From Patescibacteria group bacterium (GTDB lineage Bacteria; Patescibacteriota; JACPGU01), in NCBI GenBank assembly GCA_041675145.1, contig JBAYUK010000001.1, forward strand, positions 220,057 to 284,056: a stretch of DNA of 64,000 bases. The letters are read 5' to 3'. Below the pieces are notes generated by a model. That model had not been told where the DNA came from. It made no database searches and saw only the letters and a program-made list of their open reading frames with translations. Made by a program: the position numbers and the translations under genes. Of this stretch, positions 17,757 to 25,985 are shown piece by piece. Within the stretch, counting starts at the first letter, position 1, and every line of letters begins with the position of its first letter.

Positions 17757-17820
17757 ATATATCTGTGTATTAGTCCTCTTATGGTAGCATAAACACCGAA
17801 AATCGTCAAAATCTTGCAAG

Positions 17821-18237
17821 TTAGTATAAATCGGCTGATTGTATACCCGATCTACCCTTTTTTATATGCGACCTCACCTTCTTCTCCACTAGCCTTTTCA
17901 CCTTCTCTTGCTTGGGGATTTTAGTCGCATATCGTTCTTTTTCAGGGATCAGCGCTTCCCGTATCATGTCTTGTAGCTTCTCCATGGCTTCGAGGTAGTT
18001 TCTATGTTGCGCCCGCTCGCTTTCTGCTGAAACAATTAACTCCCCCATCTTGTTGATTCTATTCGCCAGTTTTTCTAAGACAATACTCTTTTGACTTTCA
18101 TTAAGGGTCTTAGATTTGGCTACTGGGAACCGCAAAACCACTTTACTTTCTGTCTTGTTGACATTTTGCCCACCGGGTCCCCTAGACCTGGCAGTGGCAA
18201 CATCTATTTCGTGGAGTGGTATCTTTATTGTATGCAT
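17821..18237 (-). CDS. arfB: Peptidyl-tRNA hydrolase ArfB (alternative ribosome-rescue factor, GGQ domain)
   Basis: RSRGPGGQNVNKTESKVVLRF with basic C-tail, 138 aa. Confidence 0.8.
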   Translation of the reverse strand: MHTIKIPLHEIDVATARSRGPGGQNVNKTESKVVLRFPVAKSKTLNESQKSIVLEKLANRINKMGELIVSAESERAQHRNYLEAMEKLQDMIREALIPEKERYATKIPKQEKVKRLVEKKVRSHIKKGRSGIQSADLY

Positions 18238-18240
18238 ACT

Positions 18241-19752
18241 TTATTCTACCACTATTTTTTCTTTGATGCGTAGTGCAAGAGATCTACCCACCACTGCTTC
18301 TAGTTGTGGTATCGTAGCTCCTGCTATACCACGAACCGACCCGAACTCTTTTATCAGCTTGCGTCGAGTTGCTGGACCAATACCTAAAACCTCATCAAGA
18401 GAGGAAGTGATGTTGCGTTCACGGCGTAACTTTTTGTGGAAAGTGATCGCAAACCGATGTGCTTCATCTCGAATATTTTGTACAAAATATCCCTCTGGAC
18501 TATCTTTTGATATATCCGCACGCGCAAACTGTAGCTTCTTGATATCTATCCCCCAGACTTCCTCATCACGCTTCGCAAGTCCCACGAGTGGGATATTAAT
18601 ATGTTCTTTTTGGAACAGCTGCCAGATGGTTGAAAGCTGTGGCTTGCCACCATCCAAGATTATGAGATCGGGGTTTCTCCATGGTTTCTTATCGTGGCCA
18701 GTAAGGTGTCCTAAGCGACGAGTGAGCACTTCTTTCATCATCGCAAAGTCGTTTACTCCTTTTACGGTCTTAATCTTAAACTTCCTGTACTCTCTTTTAT
18801 CCATCTTTCCATCTTGCCAGACCACCATACTCCCTACTGGTTCTGCTCCTTGAATATTACTCATATCATAAAGCTCGATACGAAACTTTCCAGATGATAA
18901 TATGGCATACCCAAAAGCTGAATTAATCTTAGCTATGACAGATTGCAAAACATCGGAATCTACTTTAGGAACGCTTTGTTGTTCCTTTACCTTATGTACG
19001 CTTTTATCCCTTACCTTGCCCAAGTGAAGTAACCCTTCTACTTTGTCTCGTACTCTTGCTGCCCCTTCGAAATCTTTCTTTTTAGATAACCTACTCATGT
19101 CTTTCTTTAAACCGCTTACCAAGCTCTCTTTCTTACCTTCAAGGAAGGTAACCAACTGCATTAAGTCCTTCTTATATTCCACCTCTGAGATGTATCCGCC
19201 ACACACCCCGCGACAAAACGCTATATGGTAGTCAAAACACGGACGGTGCTTTTTACGATGCAACTCTACCTGATGGGGAGTCAACTCACACCACTTAAAT
19301 ATTTTTCTTAAAGTCCTCATGCCGTCCTTGAGTAACCCAGCATCAGTATATGGTCCAAATATTTTTATCTTAGTATCTTTACTAGATCCAACTACCTGAC
19401 GAATAAACTCAGGACGAGGAAACTGCTCATGGAAATCTATTTTGATGTATAGAAAAGATTTATCATCTTTAATCTTTATGTTATAGCGAGGAAGATGCTT
19501 TTTAATGAGTTGGGATTCTAAAATTAACGCCTCCATCTCGGATGGAGTCTCGATCCATTTAAGATCAGCAATTAAGGAGACTAAAACATGGGTCTTAGGA
19601 TCATGATCTTTCTTTTGAAAGTAAGAGTTAACACGCTTTTTCAAGTCTTTCGCTTTACCGACATAGAGCAACTTTCCTTTCACATCAAAATACTGGTAAC
19701 AACCAGGGGATGTGGGAACTAGTTTCAGTTTGTCTGCAAGGTGTTGAGTCAT
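18241..19752 (-). CDS. uvrC: Excinuclease ABC subunit C
   Basis: N-terminal GIY-YIG (PGCYQYFDVKGKLLYVGKAKDLKKRVNSYF), C-terminal HhH. Confidence 0.85.
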   Translation of the reverse strand: MTQHLADKLKLVPTSPGCYQYFDVKGKLLYVGKAKDLKKRVNSYFQKKDHDPKTHVLVSLIADLKWIETPSEMEALILESQLIKKHLPRYNIKIKDDKSFLYIKIDFHEQFPRPEFIRQVVGSSKDTKIKIFGPYTDAGLLKDGMRTLRKIFKWCELTPHQVELHRKKHRPCFDYHIAFCRGVCGGYISEVEYKKDLMQLVTFLEGKKESLVSGLKKDMSRLSKKKDFEGAARVRDKVEGLLHLGKVRDKSVHKVKEQQSVPKVDSDVLQSVIAKINSAFGYAILSSGKFRIELYDMSNIQGAEPVGSMVVWQDGKMDKREYRKFKIKTVKGVNDFAMMKEVLTRRLGHLTGHDKKPWRNPDLIILDGGKPQLSTIWQLFQKEHINIPLVGLAKRDEEVWGIDIKKLQFARADISKDSPEGYFVQNIRDEAHRFAITFHKKLRRERNITSSLDEVLGIGPATRRKLIKEFGSVRGIAGATIPQLEAVVGRSLALRIKEKIVVE

Positions 19753-20413: not shown

Positions 20414-21486
20414 CTATTCATACCACATGTTCTCGATTTTTTGACCGAGTTCAAAGGTATCTGCATGGCTTAGGACTCCTCGGTACGACTGCATTGTTTG
20501 CAGTAGCTTTTTCTCAACTATCTTTCCGTTTCTATACTCATCCAACTTGTGTCGAATATTTCTAATAATTCGTTGTCGTGTCTTACTTCGAACGAGTCTG
20601 TGGGTCGGAAACACTACATACCCTAGAAAATCTATTCCTTGAGAAAACTTACGAATACTGGTCTTATGCGGGTGAAGTGTGAGTCGCAACTGGTTATGTA
20701 AGAAGCTATTTAGTACTGGGGTTAGCTCCATAAGATACGCCTGGCTATCTGAGACAATCACGAAGTCATCGGTATAGCGCACATAGTTCTTGATACGCAA
20801 GGTATGTTTCACAAACTGATCAAATTCATTCATGTAGATATTGGCGAACAACTGAGATGTGAGGTTTCCAATAGGTATACCTGTTTTTCGGGAGCCCTCC
20901 TTACTCTCTCTCTCTCTCTCTCTCTCTCGAAGGTGCCTACCTGAAGGCTATAGCTTTGGATAATATTCTGGATCAACTGAAGAGCCCGCAAATCAGTGAT
21001 GCGTTTCGAGATAATATCAAATAAGATGTCATGATCGACTGAATCAAAGAATTTACGAACATCACATTTTAGAGCAAAGCATGGGCGAGTGTTGTTACGC
21101 GATACTGAACGCAACATATTCTCAAGAACCGCTACTCCCCGGTGAGTGCCAAAACCTATGCGACAAGAAAAAGATGTGGCTATAAATGTCGGTTCAAAGA
21201 TAGAGTTTAAAACTCTAAACAACGCGTGATGCACTACCCGATCCCGAACTTGAGCTTTATGAATATGTCGCTGTTTGGGATCCTGGATATAAAATCCTTG
21301 ATAAGGCCCGTGCTGATAAGTTTCGCTTTTAAGCTCGCTATAAAGGGCAAATAAGTTTTGCTCTATATCTTTTTCAAAAGCTATCACATCTTCCTTGTGC
21401 CTCTTATCATGTCGGAATTCTTCCCATGATAGAAAGAGATTTGGTACTGAAATAATGGTATGATAGATTTTGGAAAATTTCTGCAT
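20414..21486 (-). pseudogene. DGR reverse transcriptase, interrupted by a +1/-2 frameshift inside a (TC)12 tract
   Basis: N-terminal segment (frame of 20830-21501) has RT motifs 1-3 (FALKCDVRKFFDSVDH). C-terminal frame reads ...GIPIGNLTSQLFANIYMNEF...YVRYTDDFVI (DGR-specific I/LGxxxSQ plus YxDD). The two frames meet in the GA/TC repeat. Confidence 0.8.
20904..20928. repeat. Dinucleotide microsatellite (CT)12C on plus, (GA) on the coding strand, inside the RT gene
   Basis: ttaCTCTCTCTCTCTCTCTCTCTCTCTCga counted directly. Confidence 0.95.
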
Positions 21487-21508
21487 ACTAATAATATACA
21501 ATATCCCA

Positions 21509-21856
21509 ATGGACCACTTCGATATACCCTTATTTAAAAAGTCATACGACCTGTATAAAACACTGTATGGGTACCGTCTTGCTGTACCAAAACTAGATCG
21601 CTATGGTATCTGGCAAAAGACCGAGAATACCTTACTAGAAGTAATCGAACACGTACTCCTTGCAAGTCAAAAAGCAAAACAAGAAAAGATCTCCCATCTA
21701 GAACAAGCAAGCTCAAGCCTGAACCTTCTTCGTGTTTTTATCCGCCTCATGAAAGACACGAAGGCACTGGACATGAAAAAGTACCTCATACTAGAAGTAG
21801 CCATTGAAGAGATAGGCCGCATGCTTGGTGGCTGGATAAAGTCTACAAAAGAATAA
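21509..21856 (+). CDS. avd: DGR accessory variability determinant (Avd), four-helix-bundle family
   Basis: MDHFDIPLFKKSYDLYK... and C-terminal LEVAIEEIGRMLGGWIKSTKE resemble Bordetella bAvd (..IAEVGRILGSWI..). ATG at 21509. Alternative TTG at 21470. Confidence 0.7.
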   Translation: MDHFDIPLFKKSYDLYKTLYGYRLAVPKLDRYGIWQKTENTLLEVIEHVLLASQKAKQEKISHLEQASSSLNLLRVFIRLMKDTKALDMKKYLILEVAIEEIGRMLGGWIKSTKE

Positions 21857-21881
21857 ATACCCACTAAGAGTGGGTATTTAT
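21856..21881 (+). terminator. Hairpin terminator directly after the avd stop
   Basis: atacccact-aag-agtgggtat then ttat. Confidence 0.5.
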
Positions 21882-21901: not shown

Positions 21902-22019
21902 ACTTCCGGGAGGACGACACGCCCACATTGTCGTTGCGGTTACTGTCCCAGTTGTTGTTGACATTGAGACCGTCGCCATCAAAGCTGCCAATGTTGACAT
22001 GGTTGCCGTCCGAATCGAT
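21902..22019 (-). repeat. DGR template repeat (TR)
   Basis: 118 bp collinear with 22368-22485. 15 mismatches, all at plus-strand T (= A in the minus-sense TR). Encodes an Asn-rich peptide (NHVNIGSFDGDGLNVNNNWDSNRNDN). Confidence 0.85.
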
Positions 22020-22271
22020 AATTGCCTTTCTCCATCCGTTGTGTTTCACTAGAAATCGAGACGTTTACCGCACTGCTTATCTCTTTTTCCTGTATCTTTT
22101 TTGGGGGCTTACTCCACCAGAGAGAGGCAAGAAGTTCGATCTCTATCCTTTTTTGCACACTACCGTCATCCTTAGATAACGATACTCCGGCATCCCAGGC
22201 GAGATATCTCGTGAGTTTAAACCGTAATCCAAACTACATGAACGAGATACTCATACTATATAAGAATTCAA

Positions 22272-22309
22272 AGTAAAAGAAAATGCCGACAGCTAAAGCT
22301 GCCGGCATT
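22272..22309 (-). terminator. Rho-independent terminator of the DGR target gene
   Basis: atgccgacagc-taaa-gctgccggcat followed by a T-run on the minus strand. Confidence 0.5.
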
Positions 22310-22335
22310 GCAAAAAGGGTTCAAAAGTAAAAGTA

Positions 22336-23151
22336 TTAGGGGTTCAAGGACTCAAGAGCCTTCGTAAACTTCCGGGAGGACGACACGCCCACATCGTCGC
22401 CGCGGTAACTGCCCCAGTAGCTGTCGACATCGAGACCGCCGCCATCAAAGCTGCCAATGCGGACAAGGCTGCCGCCCGAATCGATGGAAGCCGTCCTGGC
22501 ATAGAGCTTCATAAAGATCCGCTCCCCAGTGGCCAAGAAATGGCCGATGATGGTATACACCATCACCTGAGCGGTGGGAACTTCTTCGAGCTCCTTGTCC
22601 AGAAGCTCACCTTGCTCGCTCCAGTTTTTAGCAAGCGATCCTGGCACCTCGTCCTTGCGGACCAAGTACCACCCAACGGTTCCTTTTTCTTGAGCAAAAG
22701 CCTGGGAATTGTACCAGGCATCCTCATGCCGATAGAAGAGCGCTCTCTCGACTCTGGACCTTATATCCAGAATGGAGAGCGGAAAAACAGCCACGAGAAT
22801 GTGGGTTGTCTTACACGCACGCAACTCCTCTTCAGAGTACGGCACTTCTTCCAGAGTCTGCAACTCTTCAAGGGTAGGAGTAATGCCGAAGTGTTTTGTG
22901 GCCTCTTCCACCCCGAAGTAGTTGCTTCCCATAATCCTGCGTGCCTTCACCTGGGATTGTGAGGACTTGCTCGTCATGGCAATGAATTCGACAGCCCTTC
23001 GGGCAGCCTCACCCATCATTTCCTGGAAAATATCACTGTTGACGACTGCCAACTGTGCGTTTTCCTTGCTCGTTTCTGCCAAGCCTTGCTTGGCGCCGAT
23101 CTCGGCCAACTGACCGAGTTTGTCTTTCTGTCCGGATGTGATCAATTTCAT
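22336..23151 (-). CDS. DGR target (variable) protein with C-terminal VR
   Basis: C-terminus ...IDSGGSLVRIGSFDGGGLDVDSYWGSYRGDDVGVSSSRKF aligns with the TR-encoded peptide. AAGGAGG RBS. Confidence 0.8.
   Translation of the reverse strand: MKLITSGQKDKLGQLAEIGAKQGLAETSKENAQLAVVNSDIFQEMMGEAARRAVEFIAMTSKSSQSQVKARRIMGSNYFGVEEATKHFGITPTLEELQTLEEVPYSEEELRACKTTHILVAVFPLSILDIRSRVERALFYRHEDAWYNSQAFAQEKGTVGWYLVRKDEVPGSLAKNWSEQGELLDKELEEVPTAQVMVYTIIGHFLATGERIFMKLYARTASIDSGGSLVRIGSFDGGGLDVDSYWGSYRGDDVGVSSSRKFTKALESLNP
22368..22485 (-). repeat. DGR variable repeat (VR) at the 3' end of the target gene
   Basis: Offset +466 from the TR, no indels. 3'-proximal 27 nt (plus 22368-22394) identical to the TR and GC-rich (IMH-like). 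Confidence 0.85.
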
Positions 23152-23201
23152 GTCATCATCCTCCTTTGTAATCTCCCATCCGAGGTAGTGTGAGTACTTT
23201 C

Positions 23202-23250
23202 AGACGAGGGAACTGCTTACCTTCAATACCAGGCAGGCAACTCCCTCATC
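23202..23250 (-). promoter_or_regulatory. 15-bp stem-loop in the 5' leader of the DGR target mRNA
   Basis: Minus-sense AGAUGAGGGAGUUGC-19 nt-GCAGUUCCCUCGUCU, fully paired with 3 G-U wobbles. Lies 35 nt upstream of the RBS. Confidence 0.45.
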
Positions 23251-23284
23251 TGAAATAGGTTAGTTTTCAAAGATCAATTTCTAT

Positions 23285-23313
23285 ATTTTATCACATTTTA
23301 TACTAAAAAGCAA
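23285..23313 (-). promoter_or_regulatory. Putative promoter of the target gene (TTGCTT-N17-TAAAAT on the minus strand)
   Basis: Reverse-complement reading of 23285-23313. Confidence 0.4.
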
Positions 23314-23452
23314 GCTTTTTCTGTATTCCTTTGATCTCTTCCCTTCTGGTCAGTCTAGTCTTGACTTGTGGATAATAGTATGCTAAGATGAAGATATTAA
23401 GACGAAAAGGGGTCCAAACGGCTAACTACCTAAGGCACCCTTTTCTTTTTGT

Positions 23453-23981: not shown

Positions 23982-25985
23982 TTATTTCTTTTTTGTTTTA
24001 CCTTCGCGGCGTCTCACCGTCTCCAGCTCAAATATATGATCCCTGATATCTGCTGCTTTTTCAAACTCGAGGTTACGAGCAGCCAAGTCCATCTTTTTTT
24101 CCATATCTCTTACCATCTGGCGGAATTGTTTTTCCGGTAGAGCTTCAATATCTACCGGTAGACCGTCGATTCTCTTTTTCTCCTCACCCTTAGCACTTCT
24201 CCAGTCACCATCCTCAGACACCGCCTTATCTATTGTATGTGGCGTAATCCCATGCTTGGTATTGTATGCTTCCTGGATCGTGCGGCGACGATTCGTCTCG
24301 TCGATAGCCATCTGCATAGAACCCGTAATACTATCTGCATACATAATTACTTTTCCATCCACATTACGAGCTGCTCGTCCCATGATCTGGACAAAGGCCG
24401 AGTAGGAACGCAGAAACCCTTCTTTATCTGCATCTAAAATTGCCACCAGCGACACCTCTGGTAAGTCGAGTCCTTCACGCAGGAGGTTAATACCGATCAA
24501 ACAGTCATAGCGCCCGAGTCGCAGGTCGCGCAAGATGTCCAAGCGATCGAGTGTATCCACATCTGAGTGCATGTAAGCTGCCTTAATACCCAACTCTTGC
24601 AAGTAAAGTGAGATGCGCTCGGCCAGCTTTTTGGTAAGGGTTGTGATTAAGATGCGCTGTCCCCTGGCAGTACGCTCCCGAATCTGTTCAATCAAGTCAT
24701 CGATCTGGTTGGTAGTAGGTTTTATTTCAATAACTGGGTCAACTAGGCCAGTTGGACGAATAATTTGCTCAACAACCTGGATACTTTTCTCTATCTCGTA
24801 GGGAGCTGGAGTAGCTGAGACATACACTATCTGCTTTTGCCGTGCATCAAACTCATCAAAAGTAAGTGGTCGATTATCTCGAGCAGAGGGCAGGCGGAAA
24901 CCAAAATCTACTAGATTTTGCTTACGAGCTGCATCTCCGTTATACATACCCCGTACCTGCGGTACGGTCATGTGAGACTCATCAATAAACGTTAAGAAGT
25001 CTTTTGGAAAGAAGTCTATTAGTGTCGACGGGGGAGAGCCCGGCGTACGACCAGATAAGTGCCGGGCATAGTTTTCAATACCATTCACATACCCTACTTC
25101 TTTGAGCATCTCAAGATCGTAGTTTACTTTCTGCTCTATTCGCTGCGCCTCGATCAACTTGTCGTGCTTTTTGAAATACTCAATGCGTTCTTTGAGTTCC
25201 TCGTAAATACTTTTCTCAGCTCGTGCGATACTATCTGCTGTAGTCATAAAGATCTTAGCCGGGTAGATCGTAAAATCGGTAAGCTTTTCCATCACTGATC
25301 CCGTAATAGGGCTGACCACTCCAATGGAGTCTATTTCTGAACCAAAGAACTCCACCCGAATAACATTCTCCTCATAGGCAGGAATAACCTCTACAGTGTC
25401 TCCCCGTACTCTAAAACGACCGCGAGCAAGCTCCATATCATTTCTTTCGTAAAGGTTGGCGATTAGAAAGTTCAGGAACGCTTCACGGGTCATCTTACCG
25501 CCTTTTTCTATTTTAAAAGAAGCATTGAGGTACTCCTCCGGTTCTCCGAGACCATATATACATGAAACAGAGGCAACAATGATCACATCCCGACGCGTTA
25601 AAAGTGCGTGAGTAGCAGCATGACGCAAGCGGTCTATCTCATCGTTAATTGATGTCTCTTTTTCTATATAGGTATCTGTCTTGGGGATATATGCTTCTGG
25701 CTGGTAGTAGTCGTAATATGAGACAAAGTAGTGTACGGCATTGTCTGGAAAAAAAGCCTTAAACTCTGAGGCAAGCTGGGCAGCTAAAGTCTTGTTGTGG
25801 GCGAGTACCAAAGTCGGACGATTCTGAGCTGCTATGATATTTGCCATAGTAAAGGTCTTACCAGAGCCTGTGACACCTAAAAGCGTCTGGTCGCGATACC
25901 CAGACTCAACTCCTGATAGTAGTTTTTTAATAGCCTCCGGCTGATCTCCTTGTGGCTGAAATGGGGAAACAAGATTAAAGGACAT
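23982..25985 (-). CDS. uvrB: Excinuclease ABC subunit B
   Basis: [14 protein letters not shown]...[15 protein letters not shown]... full-length helicase and UVR domain. Confidence 0.9.

Follow-up and report, generated by a model that had tools for sequence, protein, structure and literature searches.

The variable-protein gene of a DGR in a CPR chromosome is preceded by a hairpin, P2, which is a well-supported candidate for the local copy of a previously undescribed conserved RNA motif, one whose general kind, the structured 5'-UTR cis element, is known. We hold with high confidence that the leader of this gene is a conserved cis-acting structured RNA. Judged from the sequences searched, only one CPR family of DGR variable-protein genes has the motif, and the conserved hairpin points to post-transcriptional control of this family. 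Herein, the window denotes the whole 64,000-nucleotide stretch of DNA that was analyzed.

The window belongs to a bacterial (CPR/Patescibacteria) chromosome, as its gene context indicates, with uvrB at 23982-25985 and uvrC at 18241-19752. The following features make up the DGR locus.

22336-23151, minus strand: DGR variable-protein (target) gene, 271 aa, with the VR at 22368-22485
22368-22485, minus strand: variable repeat (VR), 118 nt, from repeat comparison with the TR
21902-22019, minus strand: template repeat (TR), 118 nt, from repeat comparison with the VR
21509-21856, plus strand: bAvd accessory gene (Pfam bAvd, 3.5e-18), on the opposite strand
20414-21501, minus strand: DGR reverse transcriptase (RT) in two ORFs, both of which match RVT_1
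22282-22309, minus strand: terminator-like hairpin after the target gene, a 12-bp stem followed by a T-run, with a homologous hairpin in related loci
about 22020-22249, minus strand: conserved RNA domain with predicted structure, directly 5' of the TR, from RNAalifold

Within the 118-nt repeat, TR and VR differed at TR adenines only. A frameshift in a (GA)12 run at 20904-20928 splits the RT into its two ORFs. On the strength of the adenine-only TR/VR differences, the bAvd gene and the RT, the gene behind the hairpin leader is a genuine DGR target, in agreement with the first-pass annotation, which had placed the leader in front of such a gene. The RNA upstream of the TR occupies the 230-260 nt between the target terminator and the TR and is multi-helix and strongly covarying; RNAalifold on 20 loci, the window included, predicted 62 pairs, 36 of them with compensatory changes. 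The target protein belongs to a family of about 255 aa with 683 matches at E<=1e-10, and all of the named sources are Patescibacteria/CPR. Its closest genomic relatives come from Saccharibacteria, Wildermuthbacteria, Minisyncoccia and Kaiserbacteria MAGs. No Pfam domain was found in the family, and a Foldseek search of the target protein structure against the PDB returned no match; the variable protein has a CLec/FGE-type fold. A NYN-domain gene lies upstream of the leader in the window only.

The leader itself was laid out on the minus strand as follows, from the promoter to the start codon.

23308-23313, minus strand: -35-like hexamer TTGCTT, read from the sequence, in a placement that agrees with homologous loci
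23285-23293, minus strand: extended -10, TG-a-TAAAAT, read from the sequence, with TAAAAT at 23290-23285 and TG at 23293-23292, one base upstream
23264-23275, minus strand: GATCTTTGAAAA box, the first nucleotides of the predicted transcript, aligned with the family GTTCTTTGAAA box
23237-23255, minus strand: 5' arm of P2, UUUCAGAUGAGGGAGUUGC, from sequence and RNAfold; in the covariance-model alignment it falls in register with the family consensus aUGAGaCGAGCg
23217-23236, minus strand: apical part of P2, UGCCU/AGGUA (5 bp) closing an 8-nt loop, in both the RNAfold MFE and centroid structures
23198-23216, minus strand: 3' arm of P2, GCAGUUCCCUCGUCUGAAA, which includes the near-invariant family CUCGUCU, from sequence, RNAfold and model alignment
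23160-23166, minus strand: Shine-Dalgarno (SD) sequence AAGGAGG, read from the sequence, outside P2
23149-23277, minus strand: whole leader as matched by covariance model R1 (29.8 bits, E = 3e-4), the sole match in the 64-kb window

The minus-strand promoter named by the first-pass annotation, TTGCTT-N17-TAAAAT, was present as placed, with a spacer of 17 nt, although its -35 is weak. TTGCTT matches the -35 consensus at only 3 of 6 positions, and because of this the promoter was absent from the list of a consensus scan. The -10 ends 33 nt ahead of the 5' arm, inside the range of 31-65 nt seen at homologous loci. Taking the start site at about 7 nt past the -10, the predicted leader is about 127 nt long, close to the earlier estimate of about 125 nt. 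The AAGGAGG ribosome-binding site was likewise found, at 23166-23160, with the ATG at 23151-23149. It lies at least 32 nt downstream of P2, within an unpaired A-rich stretch. In RNAfold a weak 4-bp CCUC:GAGG pairing touches the window SD, and this pairing is unconserved in the family. The GTTCTTTGAAA box is unspecific for this leader and also follows the promoters of unrelated genes on related contigs. A candidate helix P1, formed by GUUCUUUGAA with UUCAGAA, was rejected: it had two competing registers, paired at 60-80% and showed no covariation, and the first box in it is promoter-general. In one closely related clade only, the 5' box is complementary to a decamer at about +494 in the coding region.

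On the minus strand, the arms 5'-AGAUGAGGGAGUUGC (23251-23237) and GCAGUUCCCUCGUCU-3' (23216-23202) form 15 contiguous pairs. Three of these are G-U wobbles (U-G, G-U, U-G), which on the plus strand would be A-C mismatches, and the sequence thus reads as the first-pass annotation had described it. The loop had been given there as a plain one of 19 nt. The gap between the 15-bp arms is in fact 20 nt, and RNAfold pairs UGCCU with AGGUA inside it, leaving a loop of 8 nt. RNAfold also adds 4 pairs (UUUC/GAAA) at the base of the stem, bringing it to 19 contiguous pairs, and the entire hairpin P2 of the window (23198-23255, minus strand) is predicted as this 19-bp stem with the 5-bp apical stem on top. 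Folding of the leader, which had been proposed as a check, predicts P2 as a stable hairpin: the 151-nt window leader has an MFE of -44.4 kcal/mol, against -30.4 +/- 3.6 kcal/mol in 200 dinucleotide shuffles (z = -3.95), and 0 of the 200 shuffles folded equally well. Uninterrupted stems of at least 15 bp numbered 10 in the 64-kb window, compared with a shuffle mean of 1.4, when both strands were scanned with G-U permitted and loops of 3-40. Among these, P2 was found on the minus strand only. Across the family, the energy of the P2 helix averages about -34 kcal/mol, and with the window included P2 comes to about -34 to -36 kcal/mol.

To place the hairpin in its family, 84 homologous target loci were used, 4 from genomes and 80 from metagenomes. 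These were gathered by protein similarity alone, and the sample is therefore unbiased as to the leader. About 80% of the loci carried P2, with 50-90 nt between it and the downstream ATG; of 71 distinct upstream regions, 55 had the P2 element as their longest hairpin. The other homologous genes, about 20%, have other leaders. Loci that bear P2 encode proteins that are 50-60% identical and come from Saccharibacteria, Wildermuthbacteria, Minisyncoccia, Paceibacterota and Nealsonbacteria. Second target copies in tandem (at L036, L046, L073 and L077) were also preceded by a leader match.

Family-wide, P2 forms a long, near-continuous helix (about 20-27 bp; 12 + 6 + 4-6 pairs with one mismatch) and varies at its tip. 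The 5' arm has the consensus (U)AUGAG[A/G][C/U]GAGC and the 3' arm GCUCGUCUCAU, and the inner stem and tip are variable. The half-sites in the two arms are spaced from 4 to more than 60 nt apart across the family; the apical loop varies, and three loci (L037, L010 and L047) carry insertions of 40-65 nt in it with the helix kept. What is under maintenance thus seems to be the helix itself. One locus, L065, keeps the 5' arm without its partner. A TTGAC-N16-18-TAnnnT promoter was present in 41 of 51 distinct leaders and ends 31-65 nt ahead of the 5' arm. Downstream of P2, most members have a purine-rich linker, GAGAYAAGC, then a small hairpin P3 (e.g., UCCGAACGAAUCGGA), an A-rich stretch and AGGAGGU[A/G]UGCNAUG.

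Evolution of the family has maintained the pairing. From a plain MAFFT alignment of 23 leaders, RNAalifold recovered P2, the apical stem and P3, with 10 of 24 pairs compensated. In this unfitted alignment, 94.7% of the cells were paired, compared with 86.8% in column shuffles, and double changes occurred at 11 pairs, compared with 4.5 in shuffles; 0 of 500 shuffles reached 11. Slid registers on the same alignment gave 35-45% pairing. A covariance model was built from those 23 leaders with the window left out, and it returned 58 sense-strand matches (E<2e-5) at 54 loci. The alignment of these 58 leaders was fitted to the model and hence favors the structure, with 94.8% of cells paired against 79.0% in shuffles, double changes at 20 of 26 pairs and a covariation score of 0.450 against at most 0.135 for slid registers, and the unfitted 23-leader result agrees with it. 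The top mutual-information column pairs were all inside predicted helices, and the apical stem of the family varies in sequence and covaries.

Paired cells of the 58-leader alignment included 153 G-U/U-G and 24 A-C/C-A, a roughly six-fold difference. This excess of G-U over A-C argues that the structure is selected on the sense (mRNA) strand. Selection at the RNA level had been proposed from the three wobbles of the window, and the compensatory changes in dozens of orthologous loci, together with the G-U excess, bear it out. A search of orthologous loci for covariation had been suggested, with a stem that is neither conserved nor covarying as the outcome that would speak against the claim; both conservation and covariation were found.

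The window is a member of this family. Built without it, the model gave a single match in the 64 kb, to the leader, and over 551 kb of flanking DNA the same match had E = 0.0026. P2 of the window aligns in register with the consensus, and three of its pairs are swapped in a compensatory manner (A-U to U-A, G-C to C-G and C-G to G-C). The CUCGUCU core is retained in its 3' arm. The linker GAGAYAAGC and P3 are unrecognizable, with 20 nt left unaligned against 30 model positions, and the window copy is therefore a divergent, simplified member.

Matches of the covariance model across the 551 kb lay only upstream of target genes or tandem paralogues. At gathering thresholds, no family in Rfam 15 matched the leader; at E<=1, the window region and 7 strong members gave only noise, such as mir-84 at 18 bits. 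Full-text literature searches found no leader structure described for DGR targets. A pattern search of viral contigs with TGAGRYGAG-N20-50-CTCGTCTCA gave 36 matches, which were rejected: each had only the 9-13 bp that the pattern required, most were apparently in coding sequence, and 0 were matched by the covariance model. Target genes for which no TR occurs in the surrounding 4 kb (L040, L047, L050 and L082) also keep the leader, as do two decayed cassettes (L026 and L001) that have lost the TR and the greater part of the RT by deletion. Since it persists where TR and RT are deleted or absent, it is part of the expression unit of the gene and not of the mutagenic machinery.

Sequence conservation in P2 is uneven. 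The lower stem is nearly invariant, whereas the upper stem covaries freely, and the 3' arm is the most conserved segment of the leader. The 5' arm changes by transitions that give G-U pairs (GAGACGAG, GAGGCGAG and GAGAUGAG). Just downstream of P2, the linker is a near-copy of the 5' arm and could pair with the 3' arm as GCUCGUCUC-AUUCC-GAGAUAAGC. This alternative hairpin was predicted in nearly all members, with a mean of -8.2 kcal/mol, and 8 of its 9 positions pair in 93-100% of sequences. Its pairing of 84.4%, compared with 83.6% in shuffles, gives it no covariation support of its own, and RNAalifold on the segment predicted no consensus structure. In the window, the alternative fold has -1.3 kcal/mol, and no alternative hairpin forms.

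Another pattern came from the 45 leaders with the linker in register. Their compensatory changes in the lower stem cluster at pair 35-75 (8 cases), the single position that is unpaired in the alternative hairpin. The 7 positions paired in both helices have 2 compensatory cases in all, and at the pairs that border the shared region covariation is free (10 and 23 cases). In the window, L063 and L066, where the linker is missing, double changes do occur at pairs that are invariant elsewhere. This pattern, which comes from only 2-3 independent lineages, is consistent with a 3' arm constrained by re-pairing with the linker and gives that idea indirect support at the level of sequence. A protein that contacts the 3' arm would account for the pattern at pair 35-75 equally well.

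P2 quite possibly tunes how strongly the variable protein is expressed, as a dsRNA element for processing and stability of the mRNA. We propose this tentatively, and the variable tip, the constrained lower stem and the free ribosome site make it the best fit. A sigma-70-type promoter, situated about 25-55 nt upstream of the hairpin, would transcribe the leader, with the strong SD staying free in the A-rich stretch. A dsRNA-specific factor, for which RNase III is the obvious candidate, would then bind or cut P2. In most members, the near-invariant 3' arm (GCUCGUCUC) could next re-pair with the adjacent near-copy GAGAYAAGC, so that the new 5' end of the mRNA would carry a short hairpin or have one close by. 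This hairpin would shield the mRNA while the ribosome site is kept open, and the level of the hypermutated protein would thereby be set independently of the retroelement. The window has neither the near-copy nor P3, and therefore the re-pairing step cannot apply to its copy as stated.

The length of the window helix, 19 contiguous pairs plus the 5-bp apical stem, is of RNase III type, for which about 20 bp or more is expected. The RNase III signature was not found in the window and the collected loci, which are small parts of the genomes. P2 is dispensable, in that some homologous genes do without it.

Conservation of the lower-stem sequence exceeds what RNase III substrates usually need, and a sequence-specific binding protein fits this feature at least as well. 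P2 could accordingly be the operator of an RNA-binding protein, whether a host regulator, the variable protein or a DGR component, with cleavage unneeded. This is possible, if on the doubtful side; binding of a regulatory protein had been among the suggestions of the first-pass annotation, and it is one of the two leading explanations. Such a protein would recognize AUGAGRYGAGC / GCUCGUCUCAU in the lower stem and regulate translation or decay, negatively or positively. A lower stem that stays near-invariant while the upper stem covaries, a 3' arm conserved beyond the needs of pairing and a motif confined to one gene family, as is typical of autoregulatory leaders, all speak for it. However, no candidate protein is conserved beside the leader, the NYN-domain gene being peculiar to the window, and nothing in the fold of the variable protein hints at RNA binding. 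Operator hairpins are, in most known cases, read via loops or bulges, whereas the loops of P2 are variable.

The double use of the 3' arm could also be regulatory in itself. A two-state RNA switch for DGR variable-protein genes, in which the invariant 3' arm would toggle between the 5' arm and the near-copy under a retroelement-linked factor (RT-Avd or the TR-upstream RNA) or another signal, seems improbable. Very unlikely, too, is a classical conformational switch, that is, a riboswitch, a transcription attenuator or an RNA thermometer. Two mutually exclusive partners for one arm are a hallmark of switching leaders, and the weak CCUC:GAGG pairing of the window could reach the SD. Against this, the P2 helix, at -34 kcal/mol, wins over the alternative, at -8 kcal/mol, and is too strong to melt at physiological temperature, and both SD and AUG are outside the two helices. 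Neither helix is followed by a U-tract, and a conserved uORF is absent. Conservation is found inside helices, with no multi-helix junction that has conserved unpaired nucleotides; the leader predictions are hairpins only, mutual information adds no long-range pairs, and the absence of a matching Rfam family points the same way. A small-molecule riboswitch is unlikely.

Two specific forms of control that the first-pass annotation had raised did not hold up. An attenuator is contradicted by the lack of a U-tract in the window and the family, of a leader peptide and of a terminator/antiterminator pair. What comes after P2 is GAAAGUACUC in the window and CAUUCCGAGA across the family, the A-rich stretch comes after P3, and a terminator scan listed nothing in 23152-23313. 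Translation from the AUG in the 5' arm was considered as a leader peptide or uORF and rejected, as this AUG lacks an SD and the frames it starts run to 2, 7, 10, 11 or more than 30 codons depending on the member. The thermosensor fails because SD and AUG are unpaired outside the hairpin and because a helix of about -34 kcal/mol is too stable to melt.

Could the leader be coupled to the retroelement? It would then be recognized by RT-Avd or pair with the TR-upstream RNA, tying target expression or the homing of mutagenized cDNA to the state of the DGR. The motif does occur at DGR target genes only, and the TR-upstream RNA has a conserved UCUC-loop-GAGA hairpin, with one clade sharing the octamer CGUCUCAU with the 3' arm of the leader. 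These resemblances do not extend further. Local alignments of the leader with the TR-upstream RNA scored no better than shuffles, and co-variation between the 3' arm and the UCUC-GAGA hairpin is inconsistent across clades, being broken by L028, L041, L063 and L073. Target genes without a TR and RT, whether through deletion or otherwise, still have the leader, and the DGRs of L015 and L083 keep TR and RT with a different leader. With P2 also lying about 700 nt from the VR, such coupling is decidedly unlikely.

That the inverted repeat acts as DNA, as a cruciform, a ssDNA hairpin (DGR-recognition- or attC-like) or a palindromic operator, we regard as extremely unlikely. The strand asymmetry is no strict proof of RNA, given that ssDNA also tolerates G-T, and DNA hairpins adjacent to the VR matter for DGR homing in Bordetella phage BPP-1. 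In the leaders, however, the element lies between promoter and SD alongside a second covarying hairpin, P3, and the position directly 3' of the VR is already taken by the separate hairpin at 22282-22309. A protein operator would need neither the spacing of 4 to more than 60 nt nor a covarying, unconserved inner stem, and an attC-type core sequence is absent. A chance hairpin or functionless neutral remnant, such as an old insertion, is scarcely credible, for although about 20% of homologous genes have no hairpin and the 5' arm survives partnerless in L065, compensatory changes maintain the hairpin across proteins that are 50-60% identical and across several CPR classes.

DGR research has so far focused on the copying of TR RNA and the rewriting of the VR. 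To our knowledge, almost nothing is known of how expression of the diversified protein is controlled in DGRs. This holds most of all for CPR bacteria, whose DGRs are exceptionally frequent and still beyond study in culture. A conserved, covarying leader found in a single large CPR family of variable proteins, and kept even where the retroelement has decayed, offers a testable handle on the control of target expression, and as a well-supported candidate it joins the very few structured regulatory RNAs known from CPR bacteria. The covariance model R1 is ready for genome-wide searches. If the two-state switch were true, it would mean post-transcriptional control over the timing at which a newly diversified protein is produced.

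Several known systems resemble parts of this leader. Phage RNase III hairpins, namely the T7 R sites, the lambda N leader and sib, are helices of about 20 bp or longer that decide the fate of an mRNA. Like them, P2 is double-stranded over about 20 bp or more, lies in untranslated RNA and has an unimportant tip. Those sites are in polycistronic phage transcripts, whereas the CPR element is chromosomal, belongs to one gene family and has an invariant arm. DGR target genes of Bordetella phage BPP-1 and Legionella carry a hairpin/cruciform that acts as DNA and is short, GC-rich and directly 3' of VR/IMH. P2 shares with it a conserved inverted repeat at a DGR target gene. It differs in lying 5' of the gene, about 700-710 nt from the VR, in tolerating G-U and in persisting without TR or RT.

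Structured noncoding RNAs near retroelements, some of them in DGRs, have been found by comparative analysis, as the leader was. Weinberg et al. 2017 described the motifs RT-1 to RT-19 beside the RT or TR, such as RT-10 in the BPP-1 DGR (PMC5737381). In contrast to this likeness in kind, none of the 19 matches the CPR leader; the sole sub-threshold match, RT-16 (E = 0.93), is in the TR-upstream RNA, outside the leader.

The cspA leader of S. aureus is the parallel for the processing element that we favor. There, RNase III cuts a long 5'-UTR hairpin, and the shorter leader, which bears a 5' hairpin, is more stable and better translated (PMC3386247). Both systems place a long hairpin upstream of the SD in a leader of about 110-150 nt that is conserved among relatives. 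In cspA the 3' half of the cut hairpin is able to refold into a short 5'-terminal hairpin that stabilizes the mRNA; a similar refolding is predicted for the CPR family, although the window copy is without a partner for it. The lower stem of the CPR leader is far more conserved in sequence than that of cspA, and cleavage of P2 is putative. Finally, the long form of cspA masks the ribosome site, whereas the SD of the CPR leader is free in both forms.

RNAalifold predicted a conserved structured RNA with several helices, about 240 nt long, directly 5' of TR in the window. Copies were also found among the loci with homologous DGR target genes (handles beginning with L), which had been collected by protein similarity alone.

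Window 22014-22249, minus strand: structured RNA directly 5' of TR
L008 2128-2391: further copy
L049 2750-3013: further copy
17 further loci: further copies

A total of 62 pairs were predicted, including a 12-bp long-range helix that closes the RNA, and compensatory changes were present in 36 of them. The RNA is preceded by its own -10-like box. No Rfam match was obtained at gathering thresholds, the only match being RT-16, sub-threshold, on L037. In these CPR (Patescibacteria) elements, it probably forms the 5' domain of the DGR RNA.

Part of the RNA was also retained in two decayed DGR cassettes.

L026 4655-5075: decayed cassette
L001 6613-7030: decayed cassette

In both, the leader, target gene, terminator and initial ~110 nt of the RNA upstream of TR have been kept intact and join directly to the last ~40 codons of the RT, with TR and most of the RT deleted. 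In four other loci, the leader occurs a second time, about 1 kb from the first copy, preceding tandem paralogous target genes.

L036 1316-1476: second leader copy
L046 4728-4891: second leader copy
L073 2534-2680: second leader copy
L077 4831-4999: second leader copy

Four or five CTTGA repeats (CCTTGA or TCTTGA), spaced by about 10 nt, lie between VR and the stop codon on one side and the terminator hairpin on the other. In most loci (e.g., L008, L019 and L049), the array lies in the first 60 nt past the stop codon, and it is kept even where the target gene has no TR nearby. At the homing site, such an array could serve to bind a protein or to bend the DNA. Separately, TR contains a near-consensus (11/12) promoter-like sequence, TTGACA-N17-GATAAT, on its antisense strand.

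Window about 22320-22370, minus strand: CTTGA repeat array
Window 21994-22022, plus strand: promoter-like site in TR, directed towards the target gene 3' end

The 5' box near the start of the leader transcript, GTTCTTTGAA(A), recurs 6-17 nt past the -10 hexamer at promoters of unrelated genes on the same CPR contigs, in some cases with a second box, TGGTTYNGAA, after it.

Window 23264-23275, minus strand: 5' box of the leader
L031 6319 and 7244; L065 982; L067 4793: recurrences of the box

It seems to be a motif found generally near promoters or at transcript 5' ends in these organisms. In one clade (L008, L011, L014, L019, L031, L045, L048-L050 and L084), the target coding region contains, at a shared position of about +494 to +512, a decamer that is complementary to the 5' box with at most one mismatch, TTCAAAGAAC; its recurrence may reflect only conserved coding sequence. 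The leader promoter region also has a near-identical 23-nt stretch, AAAAnCTTGCnnnnTAGTATAAA, in common with a site near 17.8 kb.

Window 23297-23319, minus strand: copy in the leader promoter region
Window 17808-17830, plus strand: copy between two minus-strand ORFs

The remaining cassette genes of the window are a split RT and the accessory gene bAvd. A frameshift within a (GA)12 run divides the RT into two ORFs, both with RVT_1. The break could mean that the RT is switched on and off by strand slippage, that it is a pseudogene or that the assembly contains an error. Unlike the target, TR and RT, bAvd is encoded on the plus strand; its start and that of the RT are about 20 nt apart. A 13-bp hairpin between TR and the avd 3' end could terminate transcription of both.

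Window 20830-21501 and 20414-20851: RT ORFs
Window 20904-20928, minus strand: (GA)12 run
Window 21509-21856, plus strand: bAvd
Window 21853-21881: 13-bp hairpin

Architecture B3 has been reported as typical of CPR DGRs (PMC5758913).
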